Shown: positions 2,172 through 61,084, numbered from the stretch's first letter. The stretch: 64,000 bases of DNA from a virus (IMGVR_UViG_3300014204_013734:128001-192000); one strand, 5' to 3'. The notes: generated by a model from the letters alone, not told the origin. Translations and numbers: made by a program.

Positions 2172-2471
2172 ATGAACGAAATGGGAAAACGGATCGTTAT
2201 GGCTCGGGATGTTGCCACGCGGTGGATATTACGGGTGGCAAAACCGGAATATCGGTTGCGTATCTATTCGTGTGACGCTAAGGAATGGTCCCGAAAATTG
2301 CGTTGTTTTCGTGACGGAAAATCCGTCATGGCGGGGGTGAAACCTGCGGGGGATCTGGGAATACACGAAGAATTTGATGTCTTGGAAGTGTGGTCATCAA
2401 ACCGCACAACTGTAGACCAGATCAAGGAATGGTTTGAAACTCGGGGTTTTGAAACTACTGGGGTTTGGTAA
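2172..2471 (+). CDS. Hypothetical protein with DVATRW tag
   Basis: GGAGG RBS before ATG 2172; TAATG coupling to the next gene. Confidence 0.7.
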   Translation: MNEMGKRIVMARDVATRWILRVAKPEYRLRIYSCDAKEWSRKLRCFRDGKSVMAGVKPAGDLGIHEEFDVLEVWSSNRTTVDQIKEWFETRGFETTGVW

Positions 2472-3154
2472 TGGCTTTGATGCGTCAACAGTCTGTATTC
2501 ACCTTCAAATCCTCGTCAGGGGGGGTGGATTACTATTTTGACATTGTTGTAGATGCCCAGGGACTTTTGTCCTTTCGTAATATCCGATCCCCCCAAGGGG
2601 TTGTAGATCCTGGTACAAATATCCCCAATTCTGTTATTGACGATATCACTACGGCAAAGCAGTTGGTTCAGCAACTTGTTGGGGAAACCCAGGCTGCTTC
2701 TGGGACAGTGACGTTTACAGGGGAAACAAGTCAAGCTGTGACAATCCCTGCCGGGACCCTCAATAACACCAACTATCGGGTGGTTTGTACGACGACTGAT
2801 GGCACCGCCCTGACTATTGAAAATAAGACTACCGTTGGGTTCAATATCGTGGCGGCTACCGCTTATGGCACCGTAGCGGATCCCAAAACGGTTGGTTGGG
2901 TCGTTTTGACTAAGACCCAAGAAGCCAGCGTGACAGGGGGTGTTTTGGCGTTCACTCCTGCGGATGCTGGACAAAAATCTGTAGTGTTTTCACCAGCTTT
3001 CACGTCAAACGCTTATCGGGTCATCTTATCGGAAGTTGGCTTTTTTAAGGCGTTTGTGGTTTCACAGACAAAAGCTGGTTTTACAGTGGGAATTGGGTAC
3101 ACCCTGGAACCCGGTGAAACCGTGCTGGTTGGATACGATGTTTTCGTATCGTGA
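2471..3154 (+). CDS. Putative virion structural protein with two beta-rich repeats
   Basis: Thr/Val/Gly-rich; repeated NYRVV...KTTVGF and AYRVI...QTKAGF units. Confidence 0.6.
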   Translation: MALMRQQSVFTFKSSSGGVDYYFDIVVDAQGLLSFRNIRSPQGVVDPGTNIPNSVIDDITTAKQLVQQLVGETQAASGTVTFTGETSQAVTIPAGTLNNTNYRVVCTTTDGTALTIENKTTVGFNIVAATAYGTVADPKTVGWVVLTKTQEASVTGGVLAFTPADAGQKSVVFSPAFTSNAYRVILSEVGFFKAFVVSQTKAGFTVGIGYTLEPGETVLVGYDVFVS

Positions 3155-3166
3155 GGAAGCCTAAAA

Positions 3167-3511
3167 ATGAGATGTCGTCCTTTTGACGTGTTGGTAAAAC
3201 CTCTGGGTCTTGATAAACCGCAGGTAGTGTTGGATAAAGAACCTTCAGTTGAAGAGACTTTGGAAAATGCGGTTCAGAGGGCCTTGGGTTGGGTTTACAT
3301 GGCAGACGTAGGGAAGGCCGGTAATCCCCCGGCGGTGAATCATTGGTGGCTCCGTCGGGATGTGCAGCTTGATGGCAGGATCGCCCAAGTTCTGGAGCAG
3401 AATGGCTTTGTAGAAGGTCGGAACAAAATTGCTGGTATTCCCGCTGAAGTCCGCCTTACCCGGGAAGGGGTAGCGGTAGCCCGACGCGCTATTGAGGGGA
3501 TTCGGTCATGA
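3167..3511 (+). CDS. Hypothetical protein
   Basis: GAGG RBS; ATGA overlap with the next gene. Confidence 0.65.
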   Translation: MRCRPFDVLVKPLGLDKPQVVLDKEPSVEETLENAVQRALGWVYMADVGKAGNPPAVNHWWLRRDVQLDGRIAQVLEQNGFVEGRNKIAGIPAEVRLTREGVAVARRAIEGIRS

Positions 3512-6376: not shown

Positions 6377-7234
6377 GTGTCAACGTCCGTTTCCAGGGTT
6401 GTCGCTAGGTGGGAAATCCGCCAAGCAGCGAGGGTCATCTGTGGGACCCGGTCTTTCCGGTCTCGTCAGGCCTCCCTTTCCGGTTTGACACCGGAAGCCC
6501 TGGAAGCGTTCGCTTCTTTCTGGATTCCCCCGAAAGGAAAAGTGGCTTTTGGGGGAATCATCAAGCGTTTGAAGCAGTTGGCGGAAGCCTTCAAGAAAGC
6601 TCCCCGTCTTTGGGAACAATTCAAGAAGGTTATAGGAGCGGAAAGTTTGGCTGATATCCCTGGGGCAATTAAGGATTTGGCGAAAAAGGGGCGGGATGTC
6701 CTCAAAGGGGTAGTCGGCAAACTGTTCGGGACGTGGCCTTTGAAAATCTACACCTTGGAGAAAAGCAAGCTTTTGAGTTTCCAGACAATTTTGGATCGGC
6801 TTTTGAAGAAGCATCCGAAATTCACCCATTGGCTTGATTCCAAAGTAAAACCAAAGGTTAATCAATTTGATATTTGGTTGCGTGAAAATATTCCTGTTGT
6901 TTCAAGGGCTTTGCTGGTAGCTGTTTACTTTTTCATCTGGTTCAATGTTATTGAGTTTGAATGGGATTTCCATTCCCTGACGGAAGCCTTGACGGGAAAT
7001 ATGAGTTTGGTAGATCTTCTTGGAAGCTTGCCAAGTTCCGCCGTCGGGGCGTTGTTAAGTTCTCTTGGGTTGGGGATGTTCTCCCTTCTTCCAGCAGCTT
7101 TTGTTGCCCGTCTTGCTTGGTTGATCGCCCATAGATACGTACATTGGACGGGCAAGGGCTTTGAATTTGATATGGAACGGTTGTCCAACGATTTGGGGAT
7201 GTCCGTTCAGGAACTTGAAGCGGAAGGCATCTGA
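6377..7234 (+). CDS. Putative membrane protein with N-terminal RVVARW tag
   Basis: Hydrophobic segments ALLVAVYFFIWFNVI and AVGALLSSLGLGMFSLLPAAFVARLAWLI. Confidence 0.65.
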   Translation: MSTSVSRVVARWEIRQAARVICGTRSFRSRQASLSGLTPEALEAFASFWIPPKGKVAFGGIIKRLKQLAEAFKKAPRLWEQFKKVIGAESLADIPGAIKDLAKKGRDVLKGVVGKLFGTWPLKIYTLEKSKLLSFQTILDRLLKKHPKFTHWLDSKVKPKVNQFDIWLRENIPVVSRALLVAVYFFIWFNVIEFEWDFHSLTEALTGNMSLVDLLGSLPSSAVGALLSSLGLGMFSLLPAAFVARLAWLIAHRYVHWTGKGFEFDMERLSNDLGMSVQELEAEGI

Positions 7235-7235
7235 C

Positions 7236-7889
7236 ATGTCGGATTCTACAACGAAGGTCGCTACCCGTTGGTTGCTCGCCCATTATACCAAGACCGCTGG
7301 TGAAGTCCGATTCATCAAGGACAGGGGTGGTGACGAGAAGCAGTGGGGTTGGTCTCTGCAAGGGCCTTCGCAGCGGGAAATGCCCGCTGAATTTACGTTT
7401 GACCCCAGGAATCTGAAACCTTTGGCCCGGACACTGAGATCAGCCTTGGCCGCCTTGGGGCATACGCAGAGTGCCTACAACACGTTCACGAAGATCAAGT
7501 CCGCTACCGTGTCCCCTGACGGCAATCTTGGGGGAAAGGGATACATCCAGCGGATTACAGACATTCGGCGACAGTGCATGAACTGTTCAGAAGCGTTGTC
7601 GTCGGTTTGTGACACCCTTTATGATGAAATTCACGCCGCCCACTGGAATCCTACCATTGCAGAGCAGAGTCCACGTGAACGTGAAGAGGTCGTAGACATC
7701 ATGGAAGATGTGGACGATATTCGTCAGTCCCCCGAAAGCTGGGCGGAAGGCGAGGAAGAAGAAATGGACGAAGAAGGTGCTGGTGGGGAAGGTGGTTGGG
7801 AAGGGGAAGGGGAAGAAATGAAGACGGAAAAGATGGCTATGATTCACAGGGTAGCATTCCGTCATGCTATGGAACGGAGGATTTCATGA
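7236..7889 (+). CDS. Hypothetical protein with KVATRW (N-terminal) and RVAFRH (C-terminal) tags
   Basis: Packed between neighbours with ATGA overlap; acidic C-terminus. Confidence 0.7.
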   Translation: MSDSTTKVATRWLLAHYTKTAGEVRFIKDRGGDEKQWGWSLQGPSQREMPAEFTFDPRNLKPLARTLRSALAALGHTQSAYNTFTKIKSATVSPDGNLGGKGYIQRITDIRRQCMNCSEALSSVCDTLYDEIHAAHWNPTIAEQSPREREEVVDIMEDVDDIRQSPESWAEGEEEEMDEEGAGGEGGWEGEGEEMKTEKMAMIHRVAFRHAMERRIS

Positions 7890-12352: not shown

Positions 12353-14233
12353 ATGGGCAGCAACCTAGCTAACATCGCTCTCGGGGTGGCTCGGGCCTCC
12401 CGAAACAGGTCGGTGTTGCAGGACACCCCGGCCGATATCATTCAGTTCATTGAATCCCCTTGGGGCATCCACATGCCCTTATTTCCAGTCCAGCGTGTTA
12501 TTCTGAAAGCATATTATGGGTTGGAACTGGACGACAAGGACACGTTTGAAGTTTACTCCGATTGGCATTTGAACAAGATTCGGAATTTCACCGAAGCTGG
12601 GTACTTGCGTTACCTCCATGATGAAGGTCGATGCAACGTCCGGGAAATAGTTCCAGGAAAACCCAAGACGGAACTGGTGTTGAGCATAGGCAGGCGTGGC
12701 GGGAAAACCCTTTTGTCCTCATGTATATCATCTTATGAGTCATATAGATTGATTATGAAGGGAGATCCGAAAAGCTATTACGGGATTTCCCCGTCAACGA
12801 CCATTCAGATTATTGCCATTGCTACGGATAAAGATCAGGCGGGATTGTTATACACGGAAGTTTCCGGACATTTCCGTGGTTGTGACTTTTTCGGTCCCTA
12901 TACGGCTAACAACACCTTGTCCTACGCTAGATTCCAAACTCCGAGTGACATTGAAAAATATGGGCGGTATGCTGATAATCCATCAGCTATGGCGTCGGTG
13001 AAAGTGACGTTCCGGTCGTGTATCGCCAAGGGACTTCGTGGACCTGGTAATATCGTCGTCATCATGGACGAAGCGGCCCATTTTACGGATGGGGGTCAAT
13101 CTTCCGCTGAAGCCGTGTACACTGCCGTCACGCCGTCTACATCAACGTTTGCCCCCAAGGATCCGAACGACAAGCGCAAACCAATTGGGGATGTTGAAGG
13201 CAAGATTATTTCCATCAGTTCCCCATTGGGGAAGCAAGGTCATTTTTACAAACTGTTTCAGACAGGTATGAAGGGTGGAAAGGCGGGGGCCAGCATGCTT
13301 TGTATCCAGGCGCCTACCTGGGAAGCTAACCCGACTCTTCCTGCGTCTGAATACGAAAAGCATTATCACAAGGATCCGACGATATTCTTTACGGAATATG
13401 GCGGAGAATTTACAGACAGAACCCGAGGCTGGTTGGAACGGCCGGAAGATTTGATCGCCTGTGTTGACAAGACGCGTCGGCCAATGACCAATGGGATTCC
13501 TCGTCAGCCCCATTTCATTGGAATTGACCTTGGGCTCGTCAATGATGCCACGGCAGTTGCCATTGGGCATCATGATCTGATTGGGGGTCAGAAGAAAATC
13601 GTTCTTGATTTGGTAGATCAGATTAAGGCGGGGGAAGGGAAATTTTCAGATGTGACCCGGCTGGAATTTGATGATGTTGCCGACTGGATTCTCCAACTGT
13701 CGAAACGGTTTTACTTGGCGGAAGGAATGTTTGACCAATGGACCGGGATCCCGTTTGAACAAGCTTTGGAAAAACGGGGCTTGCGCCAACTGAAATCCGT
13801 GGTCATGACTAAGGCCTTGAACAGCGAAATATATCGAAATTTCAAGGATGTGATGTGGGACAAGTGGTTGGTTCTTTACGATTGGCCTATCCCTGCGGAT
13901 ACTTCGCAGGGGGCGCATTGTGCCTATCTTGAAGAATTGTTTGAACTTCAGGCGGAATATCAATCTAAGTACGTGACCGTTGTTCACGCTCCACAAATAG
14001 AAGGCAAGCATGACGATAGGTCAGATGCCTTGGTGCGTATGATTTGGATGGCCAGCAACGCCCTTGGAAACATGAAACATATGACAGGGACTAGGGGCGG
14101 ATTTGCAACTCTAGGATCGTATCAGGCGTTTGAATCTATGTGGAGGAAATCCAGAATCAAAGCATTGCGGGGCGGTTCAAGTCCTGAACGCCAAATTCCC
14201 AGACAAGGCAGACAATCCCTGCGTACGAGGTAA
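12353..14233 (+). CDS. terL: Terminase large subunit
   Basis: Walker A GRRGGKT, Walker B VVIMDEAAHF, ISSP coupling motif, nuclease FIGIDLG and HDDRSDAL. Confidence 0.93.
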   Translation: MGSNLANIALGVARASRNRSVLQDTPADIIQFIESPWGIHMPLFPVQRVILKAYYGLELDDKDTFEVYSDWHLNKIRNFTEAGYLRYLHDEGRCNVREIVPGKPKTELVLSIGRRGGKTLLSSCISSYESYRLIMKGDPKSYYGISPSTTIQIIAIATDKDQAGLLYTEVSGHFRGCDFFGPYTANNTLSYARFQTPSDIEKYGRYADNPSAMASVKVTFRSCIAKGLRGPGNIVVIMDEAAHFTDGGQSSAEAVYTAVTPSTSTFAPKDPNDKRKPIGDVEGKIISISSPLGKQGHFYKLFQTGMKGGKAGASMLCIQAPTWEANPTLPASEYEKHYHKDPTIFFTEYGGEFTDRTRGWLERPEDLIACVDKTRRPMTNGIPRQPHFIGIDLGLVNDATAVAIGHHDLIGGQKKIVLDLVDQIKAGEGKFSDVTRLEFDDVADWILQLSKRFYLAEGMFDQWTGIPFEQALEKRGLRQLKSVVMTKALNSEIYRNFKDVMWDKWLVLYDWPIPADTSQGAHCAYLEELFELQAEYQSKYVTVVHAPQIEGKHDDRSDALVRMIWMASNALGNMKHMTGTRGGFATLGSYQAFESMWRKSRIKALRGGSSPERQIPRQGRQSLRTR

Positions 14234-14791: not shown

Positions 14792-17700
14792 ATGAATCAG
14801 GATGAAAAAGTGGTCAAGAAGATACCCATCAGGAAGGGTATCGTTACGGGTCGACCCAACAAGGTTGTCACTTCAGCCATGCGGTCTAAAGTGGCATTTC
14901 CGACTTCCGGCGGTACTATCACGGGTTCCGGCGGGAATTTCTATTCTCCTGAACTGTCGACTGACTTCCTTGAACTCCCCCAAAGTATCAATGAACGTTG
15001 GAATTACTATCGCTTTTTCTATGACAACGAACCCTTCGTCGGGCAGGCTATAGATCTGCATACGGAACTTCCCCTTTCAAAAATCCGTCTGGTGCCGCCG
15101 GAAGCCAAGAATAGAGATTTGGCTCAGCAGGCGTTGACCTTTTGTGAAAAATGGTCCAAGAACATTCGGCTTCTTCACCGACTCATTGCAATCGTCCACG
15201 ATTATCACCTGATTGGGGAAGTGTACGTCTTTGCCGAAGACACTTCTCCTGATCTGCCACAGGATGTCCGGCAGGAACCCTTGCGGGAAATCACTTCCGA
15301 AGGGGAAGCCATAGAACGTTGGATAGATCGTCCTGACGCGGATGCACGGGCAATTGATTGGCTCAAGAGAAATTACAAGGGGTGGTCCGCTTTGAGGGTG
15401 CTTCCCCCTGAACAAATCCACATGACGTCATTCCCGTTCACTGACGAAAAAATTATTGAACTGGTTCCGGATTCTAAGACCAAGGACATTGTGGAAAAGG
15501 CTGACGCCGGGGATCTTCAGGCTGTCAGGGTCGTGGAATCCATGCCACAGGACATCATCCAGGCAATCAAGGAAGGTAAGAATATCCCCTTGAATACCGA
15601 TCCTGATGCCGGGTCTTTCGTTCATTATCTGGCTCGGAAGCGGAGTGATTACGACGAACACGGCAAGTCCATTCTTCAACGGTGCCTTCTGCCTGGAACA
15701 CCTATTTGGATCAAGCGGCATGGGACTATCCAACAGATTGCTGTGGAAGAGGTGAATGATTCCACGGATCTTTTGTTGACTCACCTGGGCCGGTTTATGC
15801 CTTGTAAGGCAGGAACCCGCCCGGTAGATGAAGAAATCACCGTCCTTGAAATCGAAGGTGTTGAAGAACCTTTGAAGCTGACTTCCGACCACGAAGTCCT
15901 TCGTGTCCTTGAAGACGGGTCTGAAGAGTGGGTTGCAGCAGGCAAACTGCAAATCGGGGATATTGTTCGGGAAAGTCATGTCCTTCTCGATGGAAATCCG
16001 GATGGAAATCCGGCAATTCCTTATCATTTCAAGAACATTGACATGGTCAGTTGGTGGTCGGGTCGTATCCTTGATTCAATCAAGCGCGGCAGACCCGGCA
16101 CAGATTTGTTGGAAACAGAACGGAAAGTTGTCGTTGAAGCTATTCATCCTGATGGGAATGGTATTGTCGTATCCTTCCGTCATGAAAATGACAATCGGAA
16201 CCGAGTGAAGATTAGTCCTGTGTTGGAAAAGATACTTTCTTGGGCGTTTAGCCTGGAAGTTCCCGTTGTCAAAACGCAGGCGGAAGTAGCTGTTCTTGCA
16301 GGGGTGTCGGAACGTGATGTTAGGATGTACGTCCCCCGTCTCCGTAAAGAAGGTCTGCTGAAGACGGAAGTCAGGTCCCTTGGCAGGGGGAAGGGTCAAT
16401 CCGTGACGTGGTTCCCTGCGGTAACTGGGACGCTTCCCCCTATTATTACAACCCTGTCTTCCCCTATCAGGAATATTGCCGTTGATGAAAATTTCTGTTG
16501 GTTGCTTGGGGCATGGTTTGGGGATGGTTTCGTTTGGACGGAACACGAAACTTTGTTGAACGTTGACTGTGTCGGATGGTCCCTTCACGACCAAGATGTT
16601 GAAGCTAAGGTCGTGGAATTGGTTGATAAGTATTTTGGTTCTGTGAATGTGAAGCGGGGTTGTCTCGTTGACAAGAACACGGATTCCGATGACCTTCGCA
16701 TTGAAGACCCCCTTTTGGCCCGTTGGTTTATGGAAGAATTTGGGTACACGGCACAAGGTAAGCAGATGCCCGAATGGCTTTTCCATCTTCCCGAAAGTTA
16801 CGTCCTGGCTTTTCTTCGTGGTCTGTTAGACACGGATGGTTGGATAGGGGTTGATACGGCATTTCAGATTGGGTTCGGCATGGACAATAAGGTTTTGATT
16901 GACCAGATGCACCTGTTGTGTAATCGGGTCGGGATCAAGACACATGTTGGGAAAAACCATAAGAAGGAACGTTCCTGGACAAGAACCTGGAACACCAAGA
17001 AGGGTGTTCGGGAAAAGACCTATGATTACGAAGCCAAGACTTATCCGACTTTGACTTGTTCTCGTTCCGAAGATGTTCGGCGATGGGCAGGGGAAGGAAG
17101 TATCAAGGGTTCCAGGGTTGAATGGGTAGACAGGGAACCAGACAACCGTAGGGGACCTAAGATGATCGGCGGATGGCTGGTCCACAGGATTGCTTCGGTT
17201 TTGAATACCCCCTACAAGGGTCCGGTGTGGTCGTTTGATGTTGAAGAGGATACTTCTCATTTTACTTCAATCATCACACATAATTGTTTGAGAACGCTGG
17301 TCTTCAGAGACAAGATTCGGCAGGCGCATACGTCCATTGCTTCTCGACACATGACGCCTTACCGGGTCATTTATGCCGAAAATATGAATGATGACCAGAC
17401 GGAAGCCTTGCGTGATCAAGTAGACTTGGCTTTACAAGACCCCGACTATTCCATCATCACGAACTTCGCGGTGACGTGGGAAGAAATGGGCGCCGATCAG
17501 CGGTTGCCCGACTGGTCTTGGGTGTGGGACATGACGGATCGTCAGCTTTATGCCGGTCTCGGCGTAACTGAAAGTCTGTTGTCCGGGGAAGGGGCCTATG
17601 GGGGTGACAGACTTCACCTAGAAGTTATCAACACCAGGTACATGTTACTGCGTGAAATCCTTCAAGATTTCGTTGAACATGATCTGTTCCGTCCTATGTG

Positions 17701-18070
17701 TGCAAGGATGGGGTTCGTTGAGGAAGACGATGAAGGGAATGTAGAACCTTTGGTTCCGCGTTTGTCCTTCACTCGTCTTGCTTTGCGTGATAATTCGGAC
17801 ACCTTTGACGCCTTGTTCAATCTCTACCAGAAGGGCAGCCTTGACATTGACATCATTCTGGATCTTCTCAACATAGATCCGGTAACAACCCGAGAAAAGC
17901 TGCAACGGGATGTGTTCACGTTGAATGATTCTTCGTTCAATGAAGTTTTACGGGGCATCTACCAGAAAGTCGGGGATCTTTTGGTAGAAGGTTCCGATGT
18001 TACGGAAAAGATTGCCGAAAACCTTGGACTGGTGTTCAAGAAAGTCAAGGAAGGCGGCGAACGTTTCTGA
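14792..18070 (+). CDS. Portal protein containing one intein
   Basis: Follows TerL; ~558-aa extein with portal-like motifs (EPFVGQAIDLHTELPL, HGKSILQRC, AGLGVTESLLSGE). Confidence 0.8.
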   Translation: MNQDEKVVKKIPIRKGIVTGRPNKVVTSAMRSKVAFPTSGGTITGSGGNFYSPELSTDFLELPQSINERWNYYRFFYDNEPFVGQAIDLHTELPLSKIRLVPPEAKNRDLAQQALTFCEKWSKNIRLLHRLIAIVHDYHLIGEVYVFAEDTSPDLPQDVRQEPLREITSEGEAIERWIDRPDADARAIDWLKRNYKGWSALRVLPPEQIHMTSFPFTDEKIIELVPDSKTKDIVEKADAGDLQAVRVVESMPQDIIQAIKEGKNIPLNTDPDAGSFVHYLARKRSDYDEHGKSILQRCLLPGTPIWIKRHGTIQQIAVEEVNDSTDLLLTHLGRFMPCKAGTRPVDEEITVLEIEGVEEPLKLTSDHEVLRVLEDGSEEWVAAGKLQIGDIVRESHVLLDGNPDGNPAIPYHFKNIDMVSWWSGRILDSIKRGRPGTDLLETERKVVVEAIHPDGNGIVVSFRHENDNRNRVKISPVLEKILSWAFSLEVPVVKTQAEVAVLAGVSERDVRMYVPRLRKEGLLKTEVRSLGRGKGQSVTWFPAVTGTLPPIITTLSSPIRNIAVDENFCWLLGAWFGDGFVWTEHETLLNVDCVGWSLHDQDVEAKVVELVDKYFGSVNVKRGCLVDKNTDSDDLRIEDPLLARWFMEEFGYTAQGKQMPEWLFHLPESYVLAFLRGLLDTDGWIGVDTAFQIGFGMDNKVLIDQMHLLCNRVGIKTHVGKNHKKERSWTRTWNTKKGVREKTYDYEAKTYPTLTCSRSEDVRRWAGEGSIKGSRVEWVDREPDNRRGPKMIGGWLVHRIASVLNTPYKGPVWSFDVEEDTSHFTSIITHNCLRTLVFRDKIRQAHTSIASRHMTPYRVIYAENMNDDQTEALRDQVDLALQDPDYSIITNFAVTWEEMGADQRLPDWSWVWDMTDRQLYAGLGVTESLLSGEGAYGGDRLHLEVINTRYMLLREILQDFVEHDLFRPMCARMGFVEEDDEGNVEPLVPRLSFTRLALRDNSDTFDALFNLYQKGSLDIDIILDLLNIDPVTTREKLQRDVFTLNDSSFNEVLRGIYQKVGDLLVEGSDVTEKIAENLGLVFKKVKEGGERF
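15683..17284 (+). mobile_element. Intein (534 aa) with LAGLIDADG endonuclease and an inserted winged HTH
   Basis: CLLPGTPI start, LTSDHEV block B, WLLGAWFGDG and FLRGLLDTDG, end VWSFDVEEDTSHFTSIITHN|C. Confidence 0.93.
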
Positions 18071-18142: not shown

Positions 18143-21100
18143 ATGCAGCAGACAGTTTCCAGCGCAAAAGACGGCAGAAAGACGGGGGACGGGTCCGGGG
18201 TCGGATTTTTCATTCCCCTTCCTCCTGATCTTGGGGCGCAGTTCCCTGACCTTGGGGATGAAGACCGCAGCAATCCGCATACGACATTTCTTTACGTTGG
18301 GGAAGTTCCTGAAGAACGAGAAGCCGAATTCCTGGAAGTGTCTGCCCGTGTCCTGGGGACGTTGGGCGGTCTTGTTCGGGGTTATCTTGATCACCTTGAC
18401 TATTTTACGCAGCCAGACAAGGACCGGAAGGTCGCTGTCATGGCGATTCGGTTTGACAAGGATCTTGCAGCACTTAGATGGAATCTACGCGATGCCCTTC
18501 TTGATGCCGGTTTTCAGGTAGCTGATGGATTCCCCCTTCTGTACAAACCGCATGCAACTATCCAATACATGGAAGGACTTGGTTCCGAATGGAAAGGTCA
18601 TGTCCCTTCCGGGTCATGGTCATTTGACAGGATGGAAGTTTGGGGTCTGCCGAAACTGCATTCCGTTTATTTTGGTGAATCCGTGGAAGGACGTGTAGCG
18701 TCCAGGTTCCTGGAATCCATGGAACACGGGGTTTCGGTTGCCTTGATGAAGTTCTTGTCGGATGTTGCCAAAAAAGCAGGCGTGTCAAAAAACACCTACG
18801 TAGTAGGCGGGGCCGTTCGTAATTTCATTTTGGGGGTGCCCGTCAAAGACGTGGATGTCGTGATAGATTCCATTGCTTCGGGCAAGGATTCCGCATGGTT
18901 CGCCAAAAAGGTCAAGGAAGCGATTCCCGTCCCAACCAGTTTCGTGACCAATCAGTACGGTGTTGCATTGCTGACGGTGAAGGGGGATTGGTTCGTTGAT
19001 GGGGCTAATCTGAATGGGGAAACCATAGAGATTGCCAACGCCCGGAAGGAATCCTATGGTGGGGAAGCGGGCCAAGGTTACAAACCCCATATGGTCGCTC
19101 CTGCGACCATAAAGGAAGATGTCATCAGGCGGGATTTCACTTTCAACACCCTCATGTGGCGTCTCCATGATCTATCTTCCGGTCCCGATGCGGCAGAAAT
19201 CCTGGATATAACCGAATGCGGATTGAAGGATCTGCAGGCGGGGGAAATGCGGTGCCCTTCCGATCCTGACAAAACTTTTTCGAATGATCCTTCCAGATTG
19301 ATACGGGCCATAAAATTTATTTTGAAATACGGATTCAAGGTTCCCCCGGAAGTGGAAGCTTCTATTCGCCGTAACGGTCTGAAGCTCAGAAACGTCCCTC
19401 CTGGTCACCTTAGCAACATGATCATTGAATTGTTCTACGAAGGTGGGTGGGGTCGGCGTGCTTTGGAAGAAATGGACAAGTTGGGACTCCTGGAAGTCAT
19501 CAAAGACATAGCTAGGACGGACAAACCTTTCAGGGAAGCCTTGTCCAATTGGGCAGACCGCAAGGCTGACATTTCTTTCCTGTTTGACCTGATTGACATC
19601 GGGATGCCGACCGGAAGGCGTTTGAACTTCCTGACACAACCGCAGAAGGACCGTCTCAGGGAAATAACCGTACAATGGCCTGCTGAGAAGTCCGACGAAT
19701 TTGTAAACCTGCTGGAACAGCCTGGGCGCATCAAGGGTCTTGCTTTCGGGGGATTGATCCAGGAACTTGGGCTTCAAGGACCAGGAATCAAGGCGTTGAC
19801 CGACACCGTTCGCCAACGGCTTCTTGACGATCCTGATTTGGTCAGAAATCCTGACAAGCTCAGGAGGTTGGTCGGGTTGGGGAAAACGGCCGGGATTGAC
19901 AAACCCTTGGACAAGGACTGGTTGATGGCCGTCCGACGGGGATGGTTGAAATTGATGAATCCTGCTATCCGTGATTACGGCGATGTGCTGAAAGCGTTTA
20001 ATGCTTTGGATGCCTTTGCCGAAAACTTGCAGGATCAGGTGCTTAATGTCAGGCGTGATCTTTTTACGAACGATGTCAGAACTGACAAGGTAATTGCCGG
20101 CATCAAGAGGCTTCGGGAAGCAATTTCGGATTCCAGATACCATGCGAAGTTTTGGTCCGAGTGGCTTGACGGGACATCCGTGGGTTTTCGGTTGGGGGAA
20201 GATCGGACCGCAGATGCCTTGAAGATGTTGGAATTGTACCGCACGAATTTTTCTGATGCTTCTGGAACTTCAGTGAAGGGGCGTAAAAGTCCCAGCAACC
20301 CTTGGGCGAATAGCCGACAGGTTCCGTTGACTTATATCCTGGACGCGGTTTTGAAGGGGCTTTACGAAATTGCCAAAAAGAATCTGGAAGTAGGGGAGTC
20401 CGGGGACATACCGGAATATGAATCGTTCTTTCGGGAATTTTCCCTGGGAGGCATGAAGATTCTTATCAGTGATCCGAAAACACATGGTAAGGCGATAGGT
20501 GCCTATGTCCGTCAGATTGGTAAGGCAAAGCATCTTTTGGAAGCGGCTGGATTCGCCAAGGATTGGCGTGGGTTGATGATGGTCCAGTCGTCTGATTGGC
20601 ATGTTTTGACTGACACGGAAAGGGAAATATATCGGCGCAGAGGTTATGACATTCAGGAAACTGCGGGGCAGTATAGAAGTGGATCCGATTCCATTGTCCT
20701 GACTTCCCCCCCGGATTGGTCTTTGGTATTGACAATCGTGCATGAGATCGGACACCGACATTGGTCCAAGTATTTGGATGTTTCCGACAGAAAACGTTTC
20801 GCGGACTGGATTGCCGAAGGTTTGGCTCCGGTCAGCGACTACGGGAAAACCAATCCGTCAGAAGCTTTTGCAGAGGTATTCGCTCATTATGTGAATCGAA
20901 AGAACATGACCAGAGACCAGTTGGAATCCTTCAAAGCAGTGGTCAATAAGACGGCGTCCGAAAAAAAGGTGTTGAAAAACAAAAAAGGCTGCTTGATTTT
21001 GGCTCGTGTAGGGGGTTTGAGTCCGGTTAGGCAGCGCAACGAAGCGGCGCCTGCCCGTAAAGGGTTGTGGGCCTTTCTATGGCCTTGGTTTGACACTTGG

Positions 21101-29090: not shown

Positions 29091-29092
29091 CC

Positions 29093-34822: not shown

Positions 34823-34832
34823 GGAGGGAGCC

Positions 34833-42133: not shown

Positions 42134-42173
42134 GGAACCCTCCTGTGGGCACAAAATGCTCACAGGAGGTTCC
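42134..42173 (+). promoter_or_regulatory. RBS-sequestering hairpin
   Basis: ggaaccctcctgtgggca pairs with tgctcacaggaggttcc, burying the AGGAGG of the TTG start at 42178. Confidence 0.65.
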
Positions 42174-42177
42174 CCCA

Positions 42178-42567: not shown

Positions 42568-44071
42568 GTTGACATACAGCCAGCCGGCCAGCGAACTTCC
42601 AGGTTACAAGACGCTGGTTACGCCTGACCCTGTCCCCGGACAGGGGGAACCTGATTCTGCGCTTCCAACCCCTCCGTGGACCCGGTCAAAGCCGACCGGA
42701 CCGACCTATTACAACAAGCATGATGTGACTCCCCACAGGACTTTGAACGAACCTGGGGAAGATAGACCCGTGCCTAACCCGGAACCTAGCACCTTGGTAG
42801 TGCGCCGCCCCGAAATGCGGGCGGCGGGTGATCGGGAAGGGGCTATGAATGGTCCTGCTTATCCTCCTAGCCAACTGCGGCAGAAGGACCAAAGGGGCCA
42901 GGCCCGGATGTACCACAAAAAGTGGTACCGGTCCCATCGGGGCAAGATCAAGAACCGTGCGCTGCGGTGGTGGAAGAAGAACCACAACAAGTTCAACTAC
43001 AAGAAAGACCAACAGCGGCGCCGGAAGTGGCCCGCCAAGTTTGAACGGAAACCGGGTGGCGGCGTTAAGGAAAACAAAAACCGCACTCAAGAATGGCGGG
43101 ACAAGAATTCTGCTTTGGAAGAATGGATTGGTGATCCTGAAATCCAGTTGGTTGGAAATGGGAATCCCGTTTTTTTCGTTCAGTCTTCTACGGACCGTGA
43201 CGGTTGGGTTGTTGGGGTCAATCCCGACACAGGTGAAGTTGTAGTCTTGTTTGACCAAACGGACACTTTGGAAAACATTCCCATTGAAACCTTCTTTGAA
43301 GATGCAGATTTCCTGTCCGAAGAAGACGCCAACGTTGTGATGGCTGATCTTGATGCCGTATTCGGGTGGTCAGAAGACATGACGGAACGGGTCGCCTGCC
43401 GTTGGGCTGAAATGCTGTATGAAAAACGGCCCCCGGAGATGGACCCGGAAACCGTGTGGAATCGGGGTAGTGACAGGTCCAAATGGTGGACGCAAGGTCC
43501 GCCCGCCGAGGATATGGATGGCGGATGGGTCCCGGACAATCCAGGATCAGCTAAGGTCATCCCGGACAATCGGGATTTTGTCAACAACAAAGCGGCCGCC
43601 TTGATTGCCGACATACGGAAGGGATGTGATCCCAGCATCCTGGAAAAGGCTAAGGGTGTCCAGTTCCGTAAGATTCGGTCGGACAAACAGAATCTTGTCT
43701 GGTTGTTTAATGTAGAGGGTTCCGAAGGGAAGAGTTATCGGGTCAGGGCCAAGGTCATTCCCAAAGGGAACGTTAGGGATGTGGCGAAAGCCGACATCAT
43801 GGTGTCTTGTTCTTGTCCGTTCTGGCGTTGGCAGGGTCCGGAACACTGGGCATTGGAAAAGGGATACCTCTACGGTAAACCAAAAGGTTCAGCCGAAAAT
43901 CCTGATGTCAGGGACCCTGATGGGAAGCATTTGATGTGCAAACACGTGGCCGCCATTTTGGATCGTATTTCCGGGTGGTCGGTCCGCAATAAAGTAGCGG
44001 TTGTGTCAGTTTCCTGGCAGGATTTTATGACGGATGAAGTCGTCCGTCGGTACTGTGAAGCCTGGAGGTGA
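42557..44071 (+). CDS. Multidomain protein with C-terminal SWIM-type zinc finger
   Basis: VSCSCPFW...MCKHVAAIL; basic central domain; internal RVACRW tag. Confidence 0.72.
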   Translation: MSIKLTYSQPASELPGYKTLVTPDPVPGQGEPDSALPTPPWTRSKPTGPTYYNKHDVTPHRTLNEPGEDRPVPNPEPSTLVVRRPEMRAAGDREGAMNGPAYPPSQLRQKDQRGQARMYHKKWYRSHRGKIKNRALRWWKKNHNKFNYKKDQQRRRKWPAKFERKPGGGVKENKNRTQEWRDKNSALEEWIGDPEIQLVGNGNPVFFVQSSTDRDGWVVGVNPDTGEVVVLFDQTDTLENIPIETFFEDADFLSEEDANVVMADLDAVFGWSEDMTERVACRWAEMLYEKRPPEMDPETVWNRGSDRSKWWTQGPPAEDMDGGWVPDNPGSAKVIPDNRDFVNNKAAALIADIRKGCDPSILEKAKGVQFRKIRSDKQNLVWLFNVEGSEGKSYRVRAKVIPKGNVRDVAKADIMVSCSCPFWRWQGPEHWALEKGYLYGKPKGSAENPDVRDPDGKHLMCKHVAAILDRISGWSVRNKVAVVSVSWQDFMTDEVVRRYCEAWR

Positions 44072-52201: not shown

Positions 52202-54991
52202 ATGCCTGTTTGTGAAGGTTGTGGAAAAGAATACAGTAAGGGCGGTTTGAATTCACACCGTAAAACATGTATTTCTTATCAAGAATGGGCAAAGCAACTG
52301 CCCTTTTCTTGTGCTTGTGGGTTTCATTTTGCCACAGAAAGATCATTACGATCTCACAAAAAAGGTTGTGGCAAGGCGGAACGATTGCGGCTGGGAGGGC
52401 GAAAGTGTGTTTGCGGTCAAACTTACTGGTCGGTTTCGGAACACCGTAAAACTTGTCCTGGTGCACCAGAAGAGTCTTCGTCTTTGGTGGTATTGAAAGA
52501 CCCACCTCCCGGATTTTGTGCGTGTGGAAGGGATTTTTCCGCCAGCAATCAAAGATCAACTTTGCACAAACATCAGCAGGGGTGTTCGGCGTGGCACGTC
52601 TGGCAAAAGACATTGCCAGTCAAATGCGAAGGTTGCGGTCTTGGTTTTAAAGACCAGTTTAGCAAACGGTCGCATGCACAATTATGTTCTGATTGGCAGC
52701 GTTGGAAACAGATAAAAGACGAAAAGGAAAAGAAATTCCCTTGCCCTTCTTGTGGAATGTTGTTTCGTGGTCTTAAATTAGGTCTTCACGTTAATTCTTG
52801 TTCCGGGCCATGGACAAAACGTGATTGGGCTCGGCAACATAGACGAAGTAAGAGCAAGAGATTAGGTTTGATGAATCAAAAATTTCGGGAAGGGGCGGAT
52901 TTTGTCACCTGCTTGTTGTGTGGGGACCGTTTTCGTTCATTGTCCTTCCACTTGACTAGTCAGCATGGCATTGATACTGTGGAATACAGGTGCAGATTTG
53001 GAGGGGCTTCGGTGTCTGGAAACACCCAAGCTAAAAGAAAAGCAACAATGATGGACCGATACGGGTATCCTACACTTCTTCAACATCCCGTGTTATCTAA
53101 ACAGATACAAGAAAAGAGAAAAGCTACTTGTCGTAAACGGTATGGAGGAGACAGCCCTTTTTCTTCTAACTTGACAAGACCCCCAAAGAAAAACCGTTTG
53201 GAGTCAACGGTGGAAATGATTTCCCCTAAAAATGTGATCTATGTTGGAGATTTTCGTTACTGGATACAGTGCAAAGATGTGACGGGGAAGTGGATCAACA
53301 GAAATCCGGATTTCGTAGTGTATGACAAGGATAAGATGGATATTCTTTACAGCGGGGTTGTTCCGAACAAGATTCGCACTTGGAAAATTGTAGAAGTTCT
53401 AGGTGACTATTTTCACGGTCCAAAACTAAAAGGTTTGGATAGGGCAGCTTACACAGCCATGAGGATTGCAGAATATGCTTCCGTTAAGGTTCATTGCCTG
53501 ATCTTATGGGAATCTGAAATAAAGGATGACTTGGAAGCCGTTCGTGCCCGGTTATCCGCCTTTGCTGAAGAAAACCCCGTTTGTTTGAATTCGGATTCCG
53601 TCATTGGGGTTCCCCCTTCAAAATTTGACTTTGACAGGTATTACAAACGGAAGTTGTGGGCGGATGGGTTGGTAGAAGGGAAGGATTTTGTTTCCTGTCC
53701 GATTTGTGTGGCTTCCGATTCAGAGAAGGAATATCGGGCGCTACGTCTGGCCGACCACTTGAAACTGGTTCACGGGTTGTCCAGGGCGGAATTTGAGAAG
53801 CAGTTTCCAGGGTCCCCCATCGTTGCCCCTGTCGTCTATGAGAAGCGATCCAAGACCGTTAAGGCACTTTACGGCGTTGACAATGTGTTCCAGGCTGAAT
53901 CCATCAAAGAAAAGTCCAGGGAAACTGTCAGGGCCGAATATGGGGTGGACCATTCATCTCAAATACCTTCTGTCGTCCGACAGCGGGCAATGACCAATCT
54001 GTCCCGTTACGGACATGAAAACCCGTTCGGTGGGGAAGCCGTACAGGAAAAAATCCGCAAGACCATGACGGAACGGCACGGTGCCCCTAACCCCCAACAG
54101 GTTCCTGAAATCAGGGCACGCACTTTGGAAACCTGCAAGGATCTGTATGGGGATGAATTCTTTTTCCGCACGGAAGAATTCAGGAAGAAATTCCGGGAAG
54201 TCAGCCAGGAACGATTCGGTGCGGATCATCCGATGCAATCCGATGAAGGAAAAGCCTTGTGTGTAAAGGGTTGTCAAGAACATTTGGGGGTTGACAACCC
54301 TTTCCTTGTGCCGGACATTTTCAAGAAGTCTTACGAAACCAATCTAGCTAATCATGGGAGCAAGCATTCACAGCAGTGTAAGGAAGTACTTAAAAAAGCC
54401 CGTCAGACTTGGATGGAAAGGATTGGTGTTGACAATCCGTCAAAGTCGGAAGAAGTTAGGGCTAGGATGCGGGCAACATGGATGGAAAAGTATGGGGTTG
54501 ATCATCCGTTCAAAACCGAAATGGTTAGGCAAAAACTCAGGGAAGCTTTTATCAAAGCTTATGGAGTCCCTTTCTTTCCCAGCAGTGCTTTTTTCAAACA
54601 AAACCGCCCCAACAAGTTGGAAAAGAAATTTGATGCCTTGTCCCCCGTCAATGTGGTTTATGCGGGAGATGGGTCCTATTGGATCAAGCATACCGGGGCG
54701 ACCAATTCTCGTAATCCAGATTTTGTAATCTTGGATCAGGATCAGTTGGAATCCTGGAAGTCTGGGACGGCCTTGAACAAGCTCCGCACTTGGGGTACTG
54801 TAGAAATCCTAGGTGTTTACTGGCACGGACCTAAATTTACAGGGAAGAACCGTGATGACCATCAACTGGAAATCATTGAGTATTACGCCAAGTGCGGGAT
54901 TTCCTGTTTGGTTGTATGGGAAGATGATTTGAATTCCGATCCTGCTACCGTTGTCACCCGTCTTCAGCGGTTCCTCGGGTTTCAGCACTAA
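52202..54991 (+). CDS. Zinc-finger-rich putative homing endonuclease with two Vsr/PD-(D/E)xK-like nuclease domains
   Basis: Repeated CxC...HxxxC fingers; YGVDNP-type repeats; duplicated YxGD..YWI...RNPDFV...VE.LG.Y.HG...CL..WE. Confidence 0.78.
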   Translation: MPVCEGCGKEYSKGGLNSHRKTCISYQEWAKQLPFSCACGFHFATERSLRSHKKGCGKAERLRLGGRKCVCGQTYWSVSEHRKTCPGAPEESSSLVVLKDPPPGFCACGRDFSASNQRSTLHKHQQGCSAWHVWQKTLPVKCEGCGLGFKDQFSKRSHAQLCSDWQRWKQIKDEKEKKFPCPSCGMLFRGLKLGLHVNSCSGPWTKRDWARQHRRSKSKRLGLMNQKFREGADFVTCLLCGDRFRSLSFHLTSQHGIDTVEYRCRFGGASVSGNTQAKRKATMMDRYGYPTLLQHPVLSKQIQEKRKATCRKRYGGDSPFSSNLTRPPKKNRLESTVEMISPKNVIYVGDFRYWIQCKDVTGKWINRNPDFVVYDKDKMDILYSGVVPNKIRTWKIVEVLGDYFHGPKLKGLDRAAYTAMRIAEYASVKVHCLILWESEIKDDLEAVRARLSAFAEENPVCLNSDSVIGVPPSKFDFDRYYKRKLWADGLVEGKDFVSCPICVASDSEKEYRALRLADHLKLVHGLSRAEFEKQFPGSPIVAPVVYEKRSKTVKALYGVDNVFQAESIKEKSRETVRAEYGVDHSSQIPSVVRQRAMTNLSRYGHENPFGGEAVQEKIRKTMTERHGAPNPQQVPEIRARTLETCKDLYGDEFFFRTEEFRKKFREVSQERFGADHPMQSDEGKALCVKGCQEHLGVDNPFLVPDIFKKSYETNLANHGSKHSQQCKEVLKKARQTWMERIGVDNPSKSEEVRARMRATWMEKYGVDHPFKTEMVRQKLREAFIKAYGVPFFPSSAFFKQNRPNKLEKKFDALSPVNVVYAGDGSYWIKHTGATNSRNPDFVILDQDQLESWKSGTALNKLRTWGTVEILGVYWHGPKFTGKNRDDHQLEIIEYYAKCGISCLVVWEDDLNSDPATVVTRLQRFLGFQH

Positions 54992-58781: not shown

Positions 58782-58795
58782 TGAAAGGTACTTCC

Positions 58796-59251
58796 ATGCA
58801 AACGCTTGAAGAGCTGAAGAAAATTGCTGCGGAACATCCGGAAATGCGGAAGAAAATAGTTCCCTTCATCAAGCAGGCATTGGTGAAGCCCGAAGTCAAC
58901 GTGGACGTGAAGCGTGATGGTATCGTCTTCAATTTCACATGGCGTCTTCCTAACATAGGTTCGGTTGATGAATTCCCGATCCACGTCAGGAATGCAACAT
59001 TCCTATTGGATAGTGTAGTAGAAGGTATCCGTAAGGAATTTTCTGGAACGACCAAGAAAGATCAGGACGACCTTATTTGGTTGTGGACTTCCAAGGGAGT
59101 TTACTTGACCGGGCGTTTGATGCCGAATGTTGGTGTTTTCGGTATTCCCGTAGCTGAACATGTGGAACGTCTTGGAGGGCGGAAGTCTTTTGAAACCGTC
59201 CTGAAGGGTTTGTTCAAAGGATGGAATGTTGTCAGCCTAAATTGGACGTGA
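58796..59251 (+). CDS. EHPETR-tagged protein
   Basis: MQTLEELKKIAAEHPEMRKKIVPFIKQA. Confidence 0.8.
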   Translation: MQTLEELKKIAAEHPEMRKKIVPFIKQALVKPEVNVDVKRDGIVFNFTWRLPNIGSVDEFPIHVRNATFLLDSVVEGIRKEFSGTTKKDQDDLIWLWTSKGVYLTGRLMPNVGVFGIPVAEHVERLGGRKSFETVLKGLFKGWNVVSLNWT

Positions 59252-59592
59252 CCATTTTTTGGGTTTACGTCATTCAGTCCCAGGAAATCCGTCCAGGCGG
59301 GAAGCCGGGATTTTTCTATGTTGGCTGCACGACCAATCCGGCTCGTCGTCTACGCGAGCATAACGGTTTGTTAGCCGGGGGCGGTAAGTACACTGCCAAA
59401 CACCGGCCTTGGATCGCAAAAAGCTTATACGGACCCTATTCCGGCCGATCAGATGCCATGAAGGCGGAATGGGCTTTGAAGCATGGGAAACGTGGGGCTG
59501 GGCGTCTGAAATGGTCCGTTGATGATTCCCCTTGGTGCCGCGGCAAAGGGCCTGACGATCCTTGGGTCACCGCAGGCATTTCGCCTGTTTGA
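59248..59592 (+). CDS. GIY-YIG nuclease (SLX1-like)
   Basis: WVYVIQS...FYVGCTTNPARRLREHNG...GGKYT...RPW...AMKAEWALK; GTGA overlap. Confidence 0.85.
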   Translation: MTIFWVYVIQSQEIRPGGKPGFFYVGCTTNPARRLREHNGLLAGGGKYTAKHRPWIAKSLYGPYSGRSDAMKAEWALKHGKRGAGRLKWSVDDSPWCRGKGPDDPWVTAGISPV

Positions 59593-59605
59593 AAGGAACT
59601 TTTAC

Positions 59606-61084
59606 ATGTTCAGTATCAACAACCCCTTTTTGAAAATTGTCCAGGAAGCCCTTGAAGATACGGTTAGAAATTCCAAGATGTATTTCTTGGACAAGGACCC
59701 TGTGCGGAATGCACAGGGTTGGTATACTTGGAAATTGTCCGAAGTTAAGGGTGCAGGTGGAATCTGGCAGATGGAATTTTCGGTCAAGGAATCTACCGGG
59801 GAAGCTTTGGTGCAAGTGTTTCCGATTGGGTGGACTGCCCCTGGAAATTCCTCCGTCACGAGTAAGTCACTGTCTGGGTCTGTTGGGGATATACGGTTGA
59901 ATGTAGGTGAGGCGATCAAGTCTGGGATAGACAGGGCGCGGAAATATTCATTTTTCCAGAAATTCCTTCAGGAAAATGCGGGGGGTACTGGTGAATTTGA
60001 ACGGACATTCAAGGAAAACTTGATAAAAGCCACCCATCGTTTTGATGGTCTCAGTTTTTCATCTCAACAACCCATTCGGAACGTTAACGGAAGATTAACC
60101 TGGGAATTGACCTGGGATATGGGGAACGCTTTTGCTTTTGGAAAATGGGACATTGTGTTGACTGTTGAAAAAGAACAGGGAAGGGTTGAAGCGAAAATCA
60201 AACCTTTTGGTTTCACTTCTTCCGGCGTGGTTATCCCCTATTCCGTCAAAGCTTGGCCCTTTTTTGATGTTGGTGCATTTCTTTTGGACGGCGTCCGCAA
60301 AGCCAAAAGGTCCGGTCTTTTCCAGAAATTCCTTCAGGTAAAGAAGGGATCCAAAGTTGCTTCTTTTCCTTCCGTGGTAAGTCCGGAAACCAAAAGAATA
60401 GTGAAGCCTTTGATGGCGGATCTTTTCAGGAAATCCCAAAAAGACCCATGGGTAGTGGCGGATGCTGCTTATATGGTTTCGGCCGCTTCTGGGGTACTGG
60501 CGGGGTGCTATGCCCATTGGTCCAGACGTTTCCCGGTCATCAGCGAAATGTTTATGGAAACGGATCGTTCAAGTGAAAAAATCAACACCCTTTGGGAATC
60601 TTTGATGCCTGATCTAGAGAATAATTTTACCCAGGTTTCTGCGAGCCGTGTTGCTTCCCGCCATTTGGAAGCACAGGTTACGAAAGATGTTTGGGTTTAC
60701 TATGACAGGACAGCCATCTATTTTGAATTTGATTGGCCCTTGTATCCGATGGATTGGATCCACAACATCCCGAAGCAGGCGGATGCCTGTCGGACGGCTT
60801 TGGAAAAGGCGGTAGATCTTCTTCAAAAACAATTCGGGGGCAGGGAAAAGAAGGTTTCAGACAAGGCTAAGATGTACTACAGTATCCGGGACGAAGACGG
60901 ACGGTTGGTGCTGACTGGTTCCGCGCCGGCAGCGAACGGTGTGTTTGGTTTGGACGTTCCAGCAGAGGTACAGGATATTGGGGGGACGGCGGATTTCGAG
61001 AAGGCTCTTTCGGAAACTTTCCACAAGGCCGGTTGGACCGTCAAAGATCGGGATGATCTGATAGATTGGGACGACTTGGTGTAA
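59606..61084 (+). CDS. Multidomain protein: tandem duplicated domain, RVASRH tag, C-terminal domain paralogous to 58796..59251
   Basis: PVRNAQG..FFQKFLQ and PIRNVNG..LFQKFLQ; GVFGLDVPAEVQDIGG versus GVFGIPVAEHVERLGG. Confidence 0.75.
   Translation: MFSINNPFLKIVQEALEDTVRNSKMYFLDKDPVRNAQGWYTWKLSEVKGAGGIWQMEFSVKESTGEALVQVFPIGWTAPGNSSVTSKSLSGSVGDIRLNVGEAIKSGIDRARKYSFFQKFLQENAGGTGEFERTFKENLIKATHRFDGLSFSSQQPIRNVNGRLTWELTWDMGNAFAFGKWDIVLTVEKEQGRVEAKIKPFGFTSSGVVIPYSVKAWPFFDVGAFLLDGVRKAKRSGLFQKFLQVKKGSKVASFPSVVSPETKRIVKPLMADLFRKSQKDPWVVADAAYMVSAASGVLAGCYAHWSRRFPVISEMFMETDRSSEKINTLWESLMPDLENNFTQVSASRVASRHLEAQVTKDVWVYYDRTAIYFEFDWPLYPMDWIHNIPKQADACRTALEKAVDLLQKQFGGREKKVSDKAKMYYSIRDEDGRLVLTGSAPAANGVFGLDVPAEVQDIGGTADFEKALSETFHKAGWTVKDRDDLIDWDDLV

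Follow-up and report, generated by a model that had tools for sequence, protein, structure and literature searches.

A short peptide, RVAxR followed by an aromatic residue, recurs at the ends of unrelated proteins and at the joints between enzyme modules in the genome of a huge phage, and we find that it is a selected, portable, helical short linear motif. The copies first noticed lie in a stretch of 64,000 nucleotides (hereafter the window, to which coordinates refer unless marked as genome positions) that spans bases 128001–192000 of the 381-kb IMG/VR virus record IMGVR_UViG_3300014204_013734 (genome G000) and whose genes are oriented almost entirely on the + strand. A first-pass annotation had listed these copies and proposed a docking helix for prohead assembly or protease recruitment; when the cited sites were translated, every copy that it had named was found in the coding frame. 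We refer to the peptide as the tag. By analogy with the capsid targeting sequence of phage T4, it may be an address that loads cargo into the prohead, an answer that we prefer tentatively over the others weighed below.

A Recurrent Peptide under Selection

How far does the tag exceed chance expectation? Across the whole 381-kb genome, the strict form [RK]VA.RW occurs 8 times where 0.05–0.1 occurrences are expected, the form [RK]VA.R[WFYH] 12 times (0.5 expected), and a loose form 18 times (1.7 expected). The reversed motif is at background (3 versus 1.6 expected), as are the minus-strand frames, which contain almost no matches. A position-specific scoring matrix trained on relatives only, and therefore independent of this genome, recovered 16 sites at a cut-off of at least 14 bits, compared with 0.1 in shuffled sequences. 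The recurrence reported in the first-pass annotation is thus a true enrichment over shuffled controls, for the strict form as well as for the matrix.

To follow the tag through its relatives, we collected 50 related viral contigs with a TerL profile. They contain the strict motif 67 times on the coding strand versus 5 times on the other. One complete relative of 312 kb (G003) has 7 tag sites where 0.5 are expected, and another of 485 kb (G001) has 21 where 1.4 are expected. Overall, the excess amounts to 20- to 100-fold in the three whole genomes and the related contigs, on the coding strand only. The tag instances of the TerL-related contigs give the logo [S/M]-[A/T]-x-[R/K]-V-A-[S/A/x]-R-[Y/W/F/H]-[L/I/V/M], then basic and Ala residues; the Val, Ala, and Arg positions are near-invariant among phages whose TerL proteins are only ~50% identical. 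The aromatic residue itself differs between genomes, being Trp in 13/22 copies here, 3/25 in G001, and 0/12 in G003. Tandem doubling of the tag is also seen in related contigs (RVAMAV-RVAARY and RVASRV-RVASRW).

The codons underlying the tag are far less constant than the peptide. In the copy that precedes a topoisomerase IB (TopoIB) module, orthologs use five codons for Arg, taken from both of its families, and four apiece for Val and Ala, while the four residues upstream are free to vary. This copy (RVAARY, residue 1888 of the giant protein described below) is retained, with varied codons, in at least 12 relatives. Selection therefore works on the tag at the peptide level.

Placement at Protein Ends

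In this genome, seven copies of the tag lie 6–21 amino acids (aa) from a start that is placed by a ribosome-binding site or a nearby in-frame stop, and four lie 5–12 aa ahead of a stop codon. Ribosome-binding sites back real N-termini for the terminal copies only. In G003, six of the seven sites fall within 13 aa of a terminus, where ~9% of residues lie, and the seventh occupies a conserved position in the protein that we call p28512 (28512–29090). Among the TerL-related contigs, 20 of 92 unique tag instances stand 3–12 residues before a stop. The bias toward termini and linkers that had been suspected from the window is therefore real. A Met found at −3 to −7 was considered as the relic start of fused genes, but it is better read as part of a hydrophobic helical face.

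All copies in the window are on the + strand. Those at N-termini are DVATRW (2208–2225), near the start of the small 2172 gene (MGKRIVMAR-DVATRW-IL), whose orthologs show KVASRW, SVAKRF, RVAARW, or SVAGRW as their tag; RVVARW (6395–6412), at residue 7 of a 285-aa protein (6377–7234) with an in-frame stop seven codons upstream of the tag; and KVATRW (7254–7271), 6 aa past the ATG of the 7236–7889 protein. The last of these proteins carries a second copy, RVAFRH (7848–7865), 7 aa ahead of its stop. Another C-terminal copy, RIASRW (42526–42543), likewise precedes the stop by 7 aa in a 140-aa protein (42145–42567), whose G001 homolog has an extra module beyond its tag. Copies inside proteins include RVACRW (43388–43405), at residue 279 of a 505-aa protein (42554–44071); RVASRH (60647–60664), at residue 377 of the 59519–61084 protein and directly before a 125-aa domain; and a degenerate RVAAAF (28827–28844) in p28512.

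Outside the window, N-terminal copies are found at genome positions 86888, 92252, 100546, and 348790, and C-terminal copies at 88260 and in an open reading frame (ORF) at 287382 (residue 273 of 290). A 160-aa protein encoded directly after a receiver-domain gene (genome 348772–349254) combines an N-terminal tag, MPEMKV-RVAARW, with two HxT motifs, from which it is probably a second 2H phosphoesterase. Tagged genes occur at scattered places in the genomes, and the carriers elsewhere in this genome also include several ORFans. Pfam and PHROGs searches returned nothing for most tagged ORFans, and a megablast of the window against a phage collection found no match.

How stable are these positions within a protein family? 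The doubly tagged 7236 protein has 822 database homologs. Among the best 120 of them (54–84% identical), the N-terminal tag is kept in 89, mostly at residues 6–9, and the C-terminal tag in 81, at 5–7 residues from the end and at exactly 6 in 43. Information in these 120 sequences reaches 2.2–3.5 bits at R, V, A, R, the aromatic residue, and L, compared with ~0.4–1.6 bits at most adjacent positions, and the tags form islands of conservation in mostly variable flanks.

A Helix Outside Folded Domains

On a helical wheel, the conserved positions 0, 1, 2, 4, 5, and 6 line up on one side, opposite the variable positions 3 and 7, which supports a short amphipathic helix. AlphaFold models add two structural contexts. 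In residues 1–221 of the giant protein, a confident 2H-phosphoesterase core (residues 20–176; predicted local distance difference test [pLDDT] above 90) is followed by a separate helix (181–194; pLDDT 64–71) that contains the tag; Foldseek matches of this model are LigT, CPDase, and viral 2',5'-phosphodiesterases. In p28512, a small β-barrel and a Zn-ribbon are joined by a 44-residue linker with pLDDT below 50, in which a short helix forms at the tag; a fold search gave weak KOW/Tudor/SH3-like similarity only. Judging from both models, the tag is a helix-prone element outside folded domains. It has the hallmark of a short linear motif, being a conserved island inside disordered or linker sequence, as seen in the p28512 linker and in the information peaks of the 7236 family.

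Two internal partners for the tag were considered and set aside. That the barrel or Zn-ribbon of p28512 holds its own tag is not supported, the tag helix standing in a linker of pLDDT below 50. For the 2H module of the giant protein (module A), the model shows the tag helix as a lower-confidence appendage past the core, onto which it may or may not dock.

A Giant Post-Portal Protein and Its Shuffled Modules

The densest use of the tag is in a 3098-aa polyvalent protein encoded directly after the portal gene (18143–27439, + strand), in which it separates the modules. Six copies are found, at residues 184, 1507, 1578, 1888, 2352, and 2425. The first, RVASRF (18692–18709), marks the joint between the 2H phosphoesterase (residues 20–176) and a CCA/PcnB-type nucleotidyltransferase (~190–600). 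A weaker copy, VVAFRH (22661–22678), stands at the start of a homology block, and blocks end or begin at KVAVRW (22874–22891). RVAARY (23804–23821) directly precedes the TopoIB module (~1894–2165) and is followed by RVANRW (25196–25213) and RIANRW (25415–25432). The protein also contains two HExxH zincin motifs, at residues 867 and 1344; a Pfam match to ATLF scores 19.7 bits, under the 27.4 cut-off of that family. Several unrelated enzymatic domains in a portal–terminase virion context place it among the polyvalent proteins. A scan of a 1167-aa segment of it against viral contigs found nothing, nor did PDB sequence searches with two of its segments.

Are the modules exchanged as units? BLAST comparisons with relatives show that homology blocks of the giant protein start and stop at tags, and that in relatives these modules are reordered, joined together, or encoded as individual genes with a tag at the start or end. 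One contig (L021) has the order tag-nucleotidyltransferase-2H-tag-stop; in four others (L026, L006, L022, and L044) the 2H module continues through the tag into TopoIB; and in L019 it is a separate gene with a degenerate tag at its end. The nucleotidyltransferase protein starts with a tag in three contigs (L027, L047, and L041), and the TopoIB protein of L009/G001 ends with the tag that is internal here (RVANRW, residue 2352). Behind the portal, several relatives have a series of genes that each close with a tag, 4–9 residues, and a stop.

This traffic extends to stand-alone genes. A HAD phosphatase of the Swiss-Army-Knife RNA-repair type, encoded on its own at genome 87636, ends in a tag plus five residues, and in G001 its homolog forms the opening module of the post-portal protein (HAD-tag-TopoIB-tag-tag-stop). 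The tagged proteins of G003 comprise a pentapeptide-repeat protein, two proteins with hydrophobic transmembrane (TM)-like segments, and a charged protein of 942 aa to which the p28512 module is fused. In three genomes, then, the tag is portable between unrelated proteins, namely 2H phosphodiesterase, HAD, TopoIB, pentapeptide-repeat protein, and ORFans.

Genomic Neighborhood

The head module runs in the order TerL (12353–14233), portal (14792–18070, with intein- or endonuclease-like insert matches), giant protein, scaffold candidate, p28512, protease, and major capsid protein (MCP). The scaffold candidate (27560–28507, + strand) is helical, with a very acidic, D/E/K-rich tail. Next to it, p28512 (+ strand) consists of an SH3/KOW-like barrel, disordered linker, tag helix, and Zn-ribbon, and its gene is kept between scaffold candidate and protease in the relatives examined. 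The head maturation protease (29087–32431, + strand; PHROG 18299) contains two inteins, and a Pfam search assigned no family to it. The MCP (34782–35717, + strand) matches PHROG 2522, major head protein, and is preceded by a small gene (34124–34822) at the position of the phage G capsid decoration gene. Among cultured phages, Tunturiibacter phage Tunturi_5 (47%) and Bacillus phage G (38%) have the most similar MCPs.

Selfish elements have colonized the structural genes heavily, with intein/Hint and LAGLIDADG matches in the portal-sized ORF (14792–18070) and the protease (29087–32431). Homing-endonuclease matches are found in ORFs of 905 aa (35905–38622) and 929 aa (52202–54991), and TerL reaches 1040–1448 aa in some relatives. 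Directly upstream of the first tagged gene lie a NusG-like antiterminator (554–1411) and a sigma-factor region 4-like protein (1486–2091), which in relatives are preceded by a clamp-loader-like gene (read from its KYRP...GQ N-terminus); phage G has a sigma factor at the place matching window 554–2091. Upstream of the window, at genome 88327–99167, a GroEL/Cpn60-like chaperonin, a C39-like peptidase, and a 1647-aa protein with an OAS1_C-like stretch are encoded among tagged genes.

How does the tag compare with other recurrent elements in these phages? A second element in the window, EHPETR, is a module of ~28 aa (L..LAKIA[SA]EHPETRK.L[VI]P[LI]IKEA, helix-turn-helix-like), with sites at 10618, 55125, 55745, 56245, 57235, 57620, 58133, and 58832. 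Eight neighboring genes have it N-terminally, and the 10321 protein has it at its C-terminus. Residues 384–508 of the 59519 protein, right after RVASRH, align with residues 32–150 of the 58781 protein (30% identity, E 4e-12), where the domain directly follows an EHPEMR module. The suggestion that the two tags are interchangeable is thus borne out by a domain that follows one tag in one protein and the other in another, but it is shown for this one domain only. A small ORF (59221–59592) with a GIY-YIG-like N-terminal motif (GFFYVGCTTNPARRLREHN) sits between the EHPETR paralogs and the 59519 gene.

G003 has an element of its own: 28 of its proteins carry an N-terminal heptad helix, LE-x-R[IV]A-x-LE-KEA, at residues 10–32 (e.g., ...IRSLE-M-RIARLE-KEA), with examples at genome 146213–158523, 183199, and 183903, many of them flanking the head module. 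The heptad helix has an R-[VI]-A core in common with the tag. Elsewhere, it has one chance match in G000 and two in G001. The EHPETR module, in turn, is absent from G003 and G001 and is lineage-specific. Because the heptad helix is missing here and EHPETR is missing there, RVAxR-aromatic is the clade-wide tag. In phage G, the head-region proteins gp5, gp9, gp10, gp17, and gp20 begin with a basic x-R-L-K-K and gp13 begins with MKRLIS-KTAARY (phage G 3292–44131); this basic N-terminal motif may be a tag specific to that lineage.

An Address for the Prohead?

What might the tag do? The explanation that we rank first, with somewhat less than even confidence, is that it is a portable address tag that would load cargo into the prohead, as the T4 capsid targeting sequence does. 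The tag would form an amphipathic α-helix of ~10–13 residues ending in a short basic stretch, and a face made of M/S at −3, A at −2, V1, A2, the aromatic residue at 5, and L6, flanked by R0 and R4, would bind a common putative receptor. Flexible linkers join it to the N- or C-terminus of unrelated proteins, and it separates the enzyme modules of the giant protein. During head assembly, it would dock cargo to the prohead interior, be it the scaffold or core, the inner shell surface, or the portal, and an exchangeable set of enzymes would be packaged and later delivered with the DNA. The predicted set comprises a 2',3'-cyclic/2H phosphoesterase, CCA-type nucleotidyltransferase, HAD phosphatase, topoisomerase IB, and zincins, to which relatives would add a pentapeptide-repeat protein and membrane-active proteins. 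A neighboring [R/K]-[K/T]-A-[S/G] element may be the site of later tag removal. We infer the prohead location of the receptor, for which the scaffold candidate (27560–28507) is a possible identity, as well as the packaging and ejection of cargo and the removal of the tag; the link to the capsid is circumstantial.

We favor the prohead because the tag is used most densely in the protein right after the portal, a class predicted to be packaged and injected, and because modules move with their tag between this protein and stand-alone genes. Two placements of tagged p28512, next to the scaffold candidate and, in G003, within a fusion to a scaffold-like, charged protein, point the same way. So do the near-terminal position, the use at both protein ends, and the possible processing element, which parallel the T4 capsid targeting sequence and Alt as well as DarB of phage P1. 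Finally, the heads of giant phages hold ~50 proteins whose loading signals are mostly unknown, and an address tag would suit this situation.

Several observations weigh against a prohead address. The MCP, portal, TerL, scaffold candidate, and protease carry no copy of the tag, although this by itself neither supports nor refutes the idea. The N-terminal part of the G003 fusion protein was considered as a scaffold homolog and rejected, as it has no significant BLAST similarity to the candidate in the window. The head regions of Tunturi_5 and phage G contain no canonical tag, only RVAARG (gp330) and KTAARY (gp13), and these two phages were accordingly dropped as experimental test beds. A number of tagged genes are distant from the head module, and the first of them follows the NusG- and sigma-like genes, which makes a transcription or replication hub possible. 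The possible removal element [RK][KT]A[SG], between tag and protein body, stands next to 19 of 96 tags where 2.8 are expected, a count that is partly inflated by the orthologs of one family. Of the first-pass proposal, the amphipathic helix, the selection on the peptide, the placement at termini and joints, and the portability stand; docking in the prohead is putative, as is recruitment of a protease, and the head proteins and the protease are without a copy.

The carriers of [RK][KT]A[SG] belong to several unrelated families. They include the 7236 family (KTAG at 7290–7301 in the 7236 protein itself), the 6377 family, the proteins at genome 86852 and 92105, and one post-portal, one pentapeptide-repeat, and one TM-containing protein. 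The element may mark tag removal. A Glu ~8 residues past the aromatic position was also tried as a T4-like cut site and dropped, since most instances belong to a single orthologous family, that of the 2172 gene.

Could the tag instead gather its carriers somewhere other than the capsid? It would then be a docking motif for a hub of phage or host origin, such as the phage GroEL-like chaperonin, RNA polymerase with NusG- or sigma-like factors, a sliding clamp, or an assembly formed on the incoming DNA after injection, collecting repair and anti-defense enzymes in the cell and loading no head. We consider this unlikely, yet it is the strongest competitor. The properties of a short linear motif fit it equally well, as does the scatter of tagged genes over the genomes; a GroEL-like chaperonin (genome 88327) is encoded directly after two tagged genes, and the NusG- and sigma-like genes, joined in relatives by the clamp-loader-like gene, precede the first one. 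On the other hand, no polymerase, helicase, primase, or ligase is found among the annotatable tagged proteins, several tagged proteins being unannotated, and the tag is concentrated in the giant post-portal protein and in the p28512 module beside the scaffold candidate. To our knowledge, the RVAxR motif is also unlike the known clamp-binding peptides, which counts against the clamp as hub.

A still less probable alternative is that the motif is itself a proteolytic site, recognized by the prohead protease, a zincin domain of the giant protein, or the C39-like peptidase, at which the polyprotein would be cut into its enzymes and the ends of other proteins trimmed. V-A-[S/A] bears a loose resemblance to the Ala-Ser sites cut by assemblin-type proteases, and copies sit exactly at the module joints of the 3098-aa protein, as in viral polyproteins. 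The giant protein moreover has its two HExxH zincin motifs, and such zincins have been proposed as autoprocessing peptidases (PMC5512222). A cleavage site is hard to reconcile, however, with the many stand-alone proteins in which the motif lies 5–8 residues from an end, where a cut gains little, or with its tandem doubling. Conservation spans one helical face over 7–10 residues, unlike a short P1/P1' signature; only every second copy or so has S or A at the would-be P1' position; and the usual protease substrates (MCP, scaffold candidate, and portal) lack the motif.

Very improbable is a membrane-targeting amphipathic helix that, as the terminal helices of MinD, FtsA, and MreB do, would recruit its carriers to the inner membrane. 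The terminal position, the basic and aromatic/hydrophobic make-up, the helical propensity, and the two G003 tagged proteins with TM-like segments would fit such a role. Membrane-targeting helices tolerate wide sequence variation, however, whereas Val, Ala, and Arg are near-invariant here despite the divergence of TerL; the tag offers only a small hydrophobic face (V, A, A, aromatic, L); and the motif also occurs deep inside the soluble 3098-aa enzyme chain. Finally, the chance that there is no functional peptide at all, only a compositional accident or a DNA-level repeat or recombination linker at module borders, is negligible: module shuffling does take place at the motif, but shuffles, reversed motif, wrong frames, and the other strand are all at background, and the peptide is fixed while codons vary freely, on which grounds the DNA-level versions were rejected; hundreds of homologs also keep the motif at constant distances from their termini.

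If the prohead address is taken together with the removal element, a more specific and more doubtful proposal follows: a bipartite, removable code, consisting of a docking helix and an [R/K][K/T]A-[S/G] cut site, may load exchangeable RNA-repair and anti-defense enzymes into the capsid, either as beads on a post-portal polyprotein or as single proteins encoded anywhere. If true, phages would have their own equivalent of cargo loading by encapsulins, and the selection of dozens of internal proteins by giant-phage heads would find a general answer. A conserved, portable tag that also sets off polyvalent-protein modules would allow the injected proteome of this clade to be predicted from metagenomes by a sequence rule, and its carriers (2H phosphoesterase, CCA-adding-type enzyme, and HAD phosphatase) would point to a packaged kit for tRNA-end repair or signal degradation. 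If confirmed, it would also offer 10 residues by which foreign proteins could be brought into phage heads. Even if the receptor is not in the capsid, the tag would still define an undescribed protein-interaction hub of huge phages.

Comparison with Known Systems

The closest parallel is the T4 capsid targeting sequence, reportedly described by Mullaney and Black in 1996. In IPI-III and Alt, it is likewise a portable end peptide of ~10 residues on unrelated packaged proteins, whose cargo includes anti-defense enzymes delivered with the DNA. It is also bipartite, combining targeting residues with a processing site, and Alt is processed at both termini (PMC9026906). Its sequence is unrelated to the tag (MKTYQEFIAE, cut after Glu), and it is N-terminal, whereas the RVAxR tag is found at N-termini, at C-termini, and between modules, with packaging and cleavage predicted only. 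The lineage differs as well, the phages studied here being related to Bacillus phage G rather than to T4.

The cargo-loading peptides of encapsulins offer a second analogy: short and terminal, they use a flexible linker and dock diverse enzymes inside a shell of HK97 fold, at its inner face. They come from other organisms and are Gly/Ser/Leu-rich and extended, unlike the predicted helix of the RVAxR tag, and their shell packages no DNA and ejects no cargo. DarB of phage P1 has a signal that directs this anti-restriction protein and a reporter into the capsid and that, like many tags, lies a few residues past the start; residues 6–10 at its N-terminus are essential for packaging, and the first 30 are sufficient (PMC9024508). 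The DarB signal belongs to one protein, does not recur, and shows no sequence similarity to the tag; it has been tested by experiment, whereas a packaging role of RVAxR is predicted.

Larger heads raise the same question of how internal proteins are selected. The head of the phiKZ-like phage SPN3US contains ~50 proteins, including ejected enzymes, only 9 of which have a recognized processing signal, and some substrates of gp245 carry N-terminal propeptides of 20–24 aa that are thought to target the prohead (PMC10052503). What defines these propeptides is an (A/S/G)-x-E cleavage motif rather than a common docking helix, in contrast to the tag, and 42 head proteins there are without a known signal (PMC10052503). 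Polyvalent proteins of phages and conjugative elements, encoded near the portal and terminase genes, for their part, have been predicted to be virion-packaged and injected (Iyer, Burroughs, Anand, de Souza, and Aravind 2017, PMC5512222), in an account that describes no conserved peptide between their domains. The protein found here is likewise a giant multienzyme chain beside portal and terminase, with zincin-like peptidase motifs and nucleic-acid-modifying domains. Unlike in the polyvalent proteins described before, the same delimiter here also marks stand-alone proteins, and modules move between both forms.

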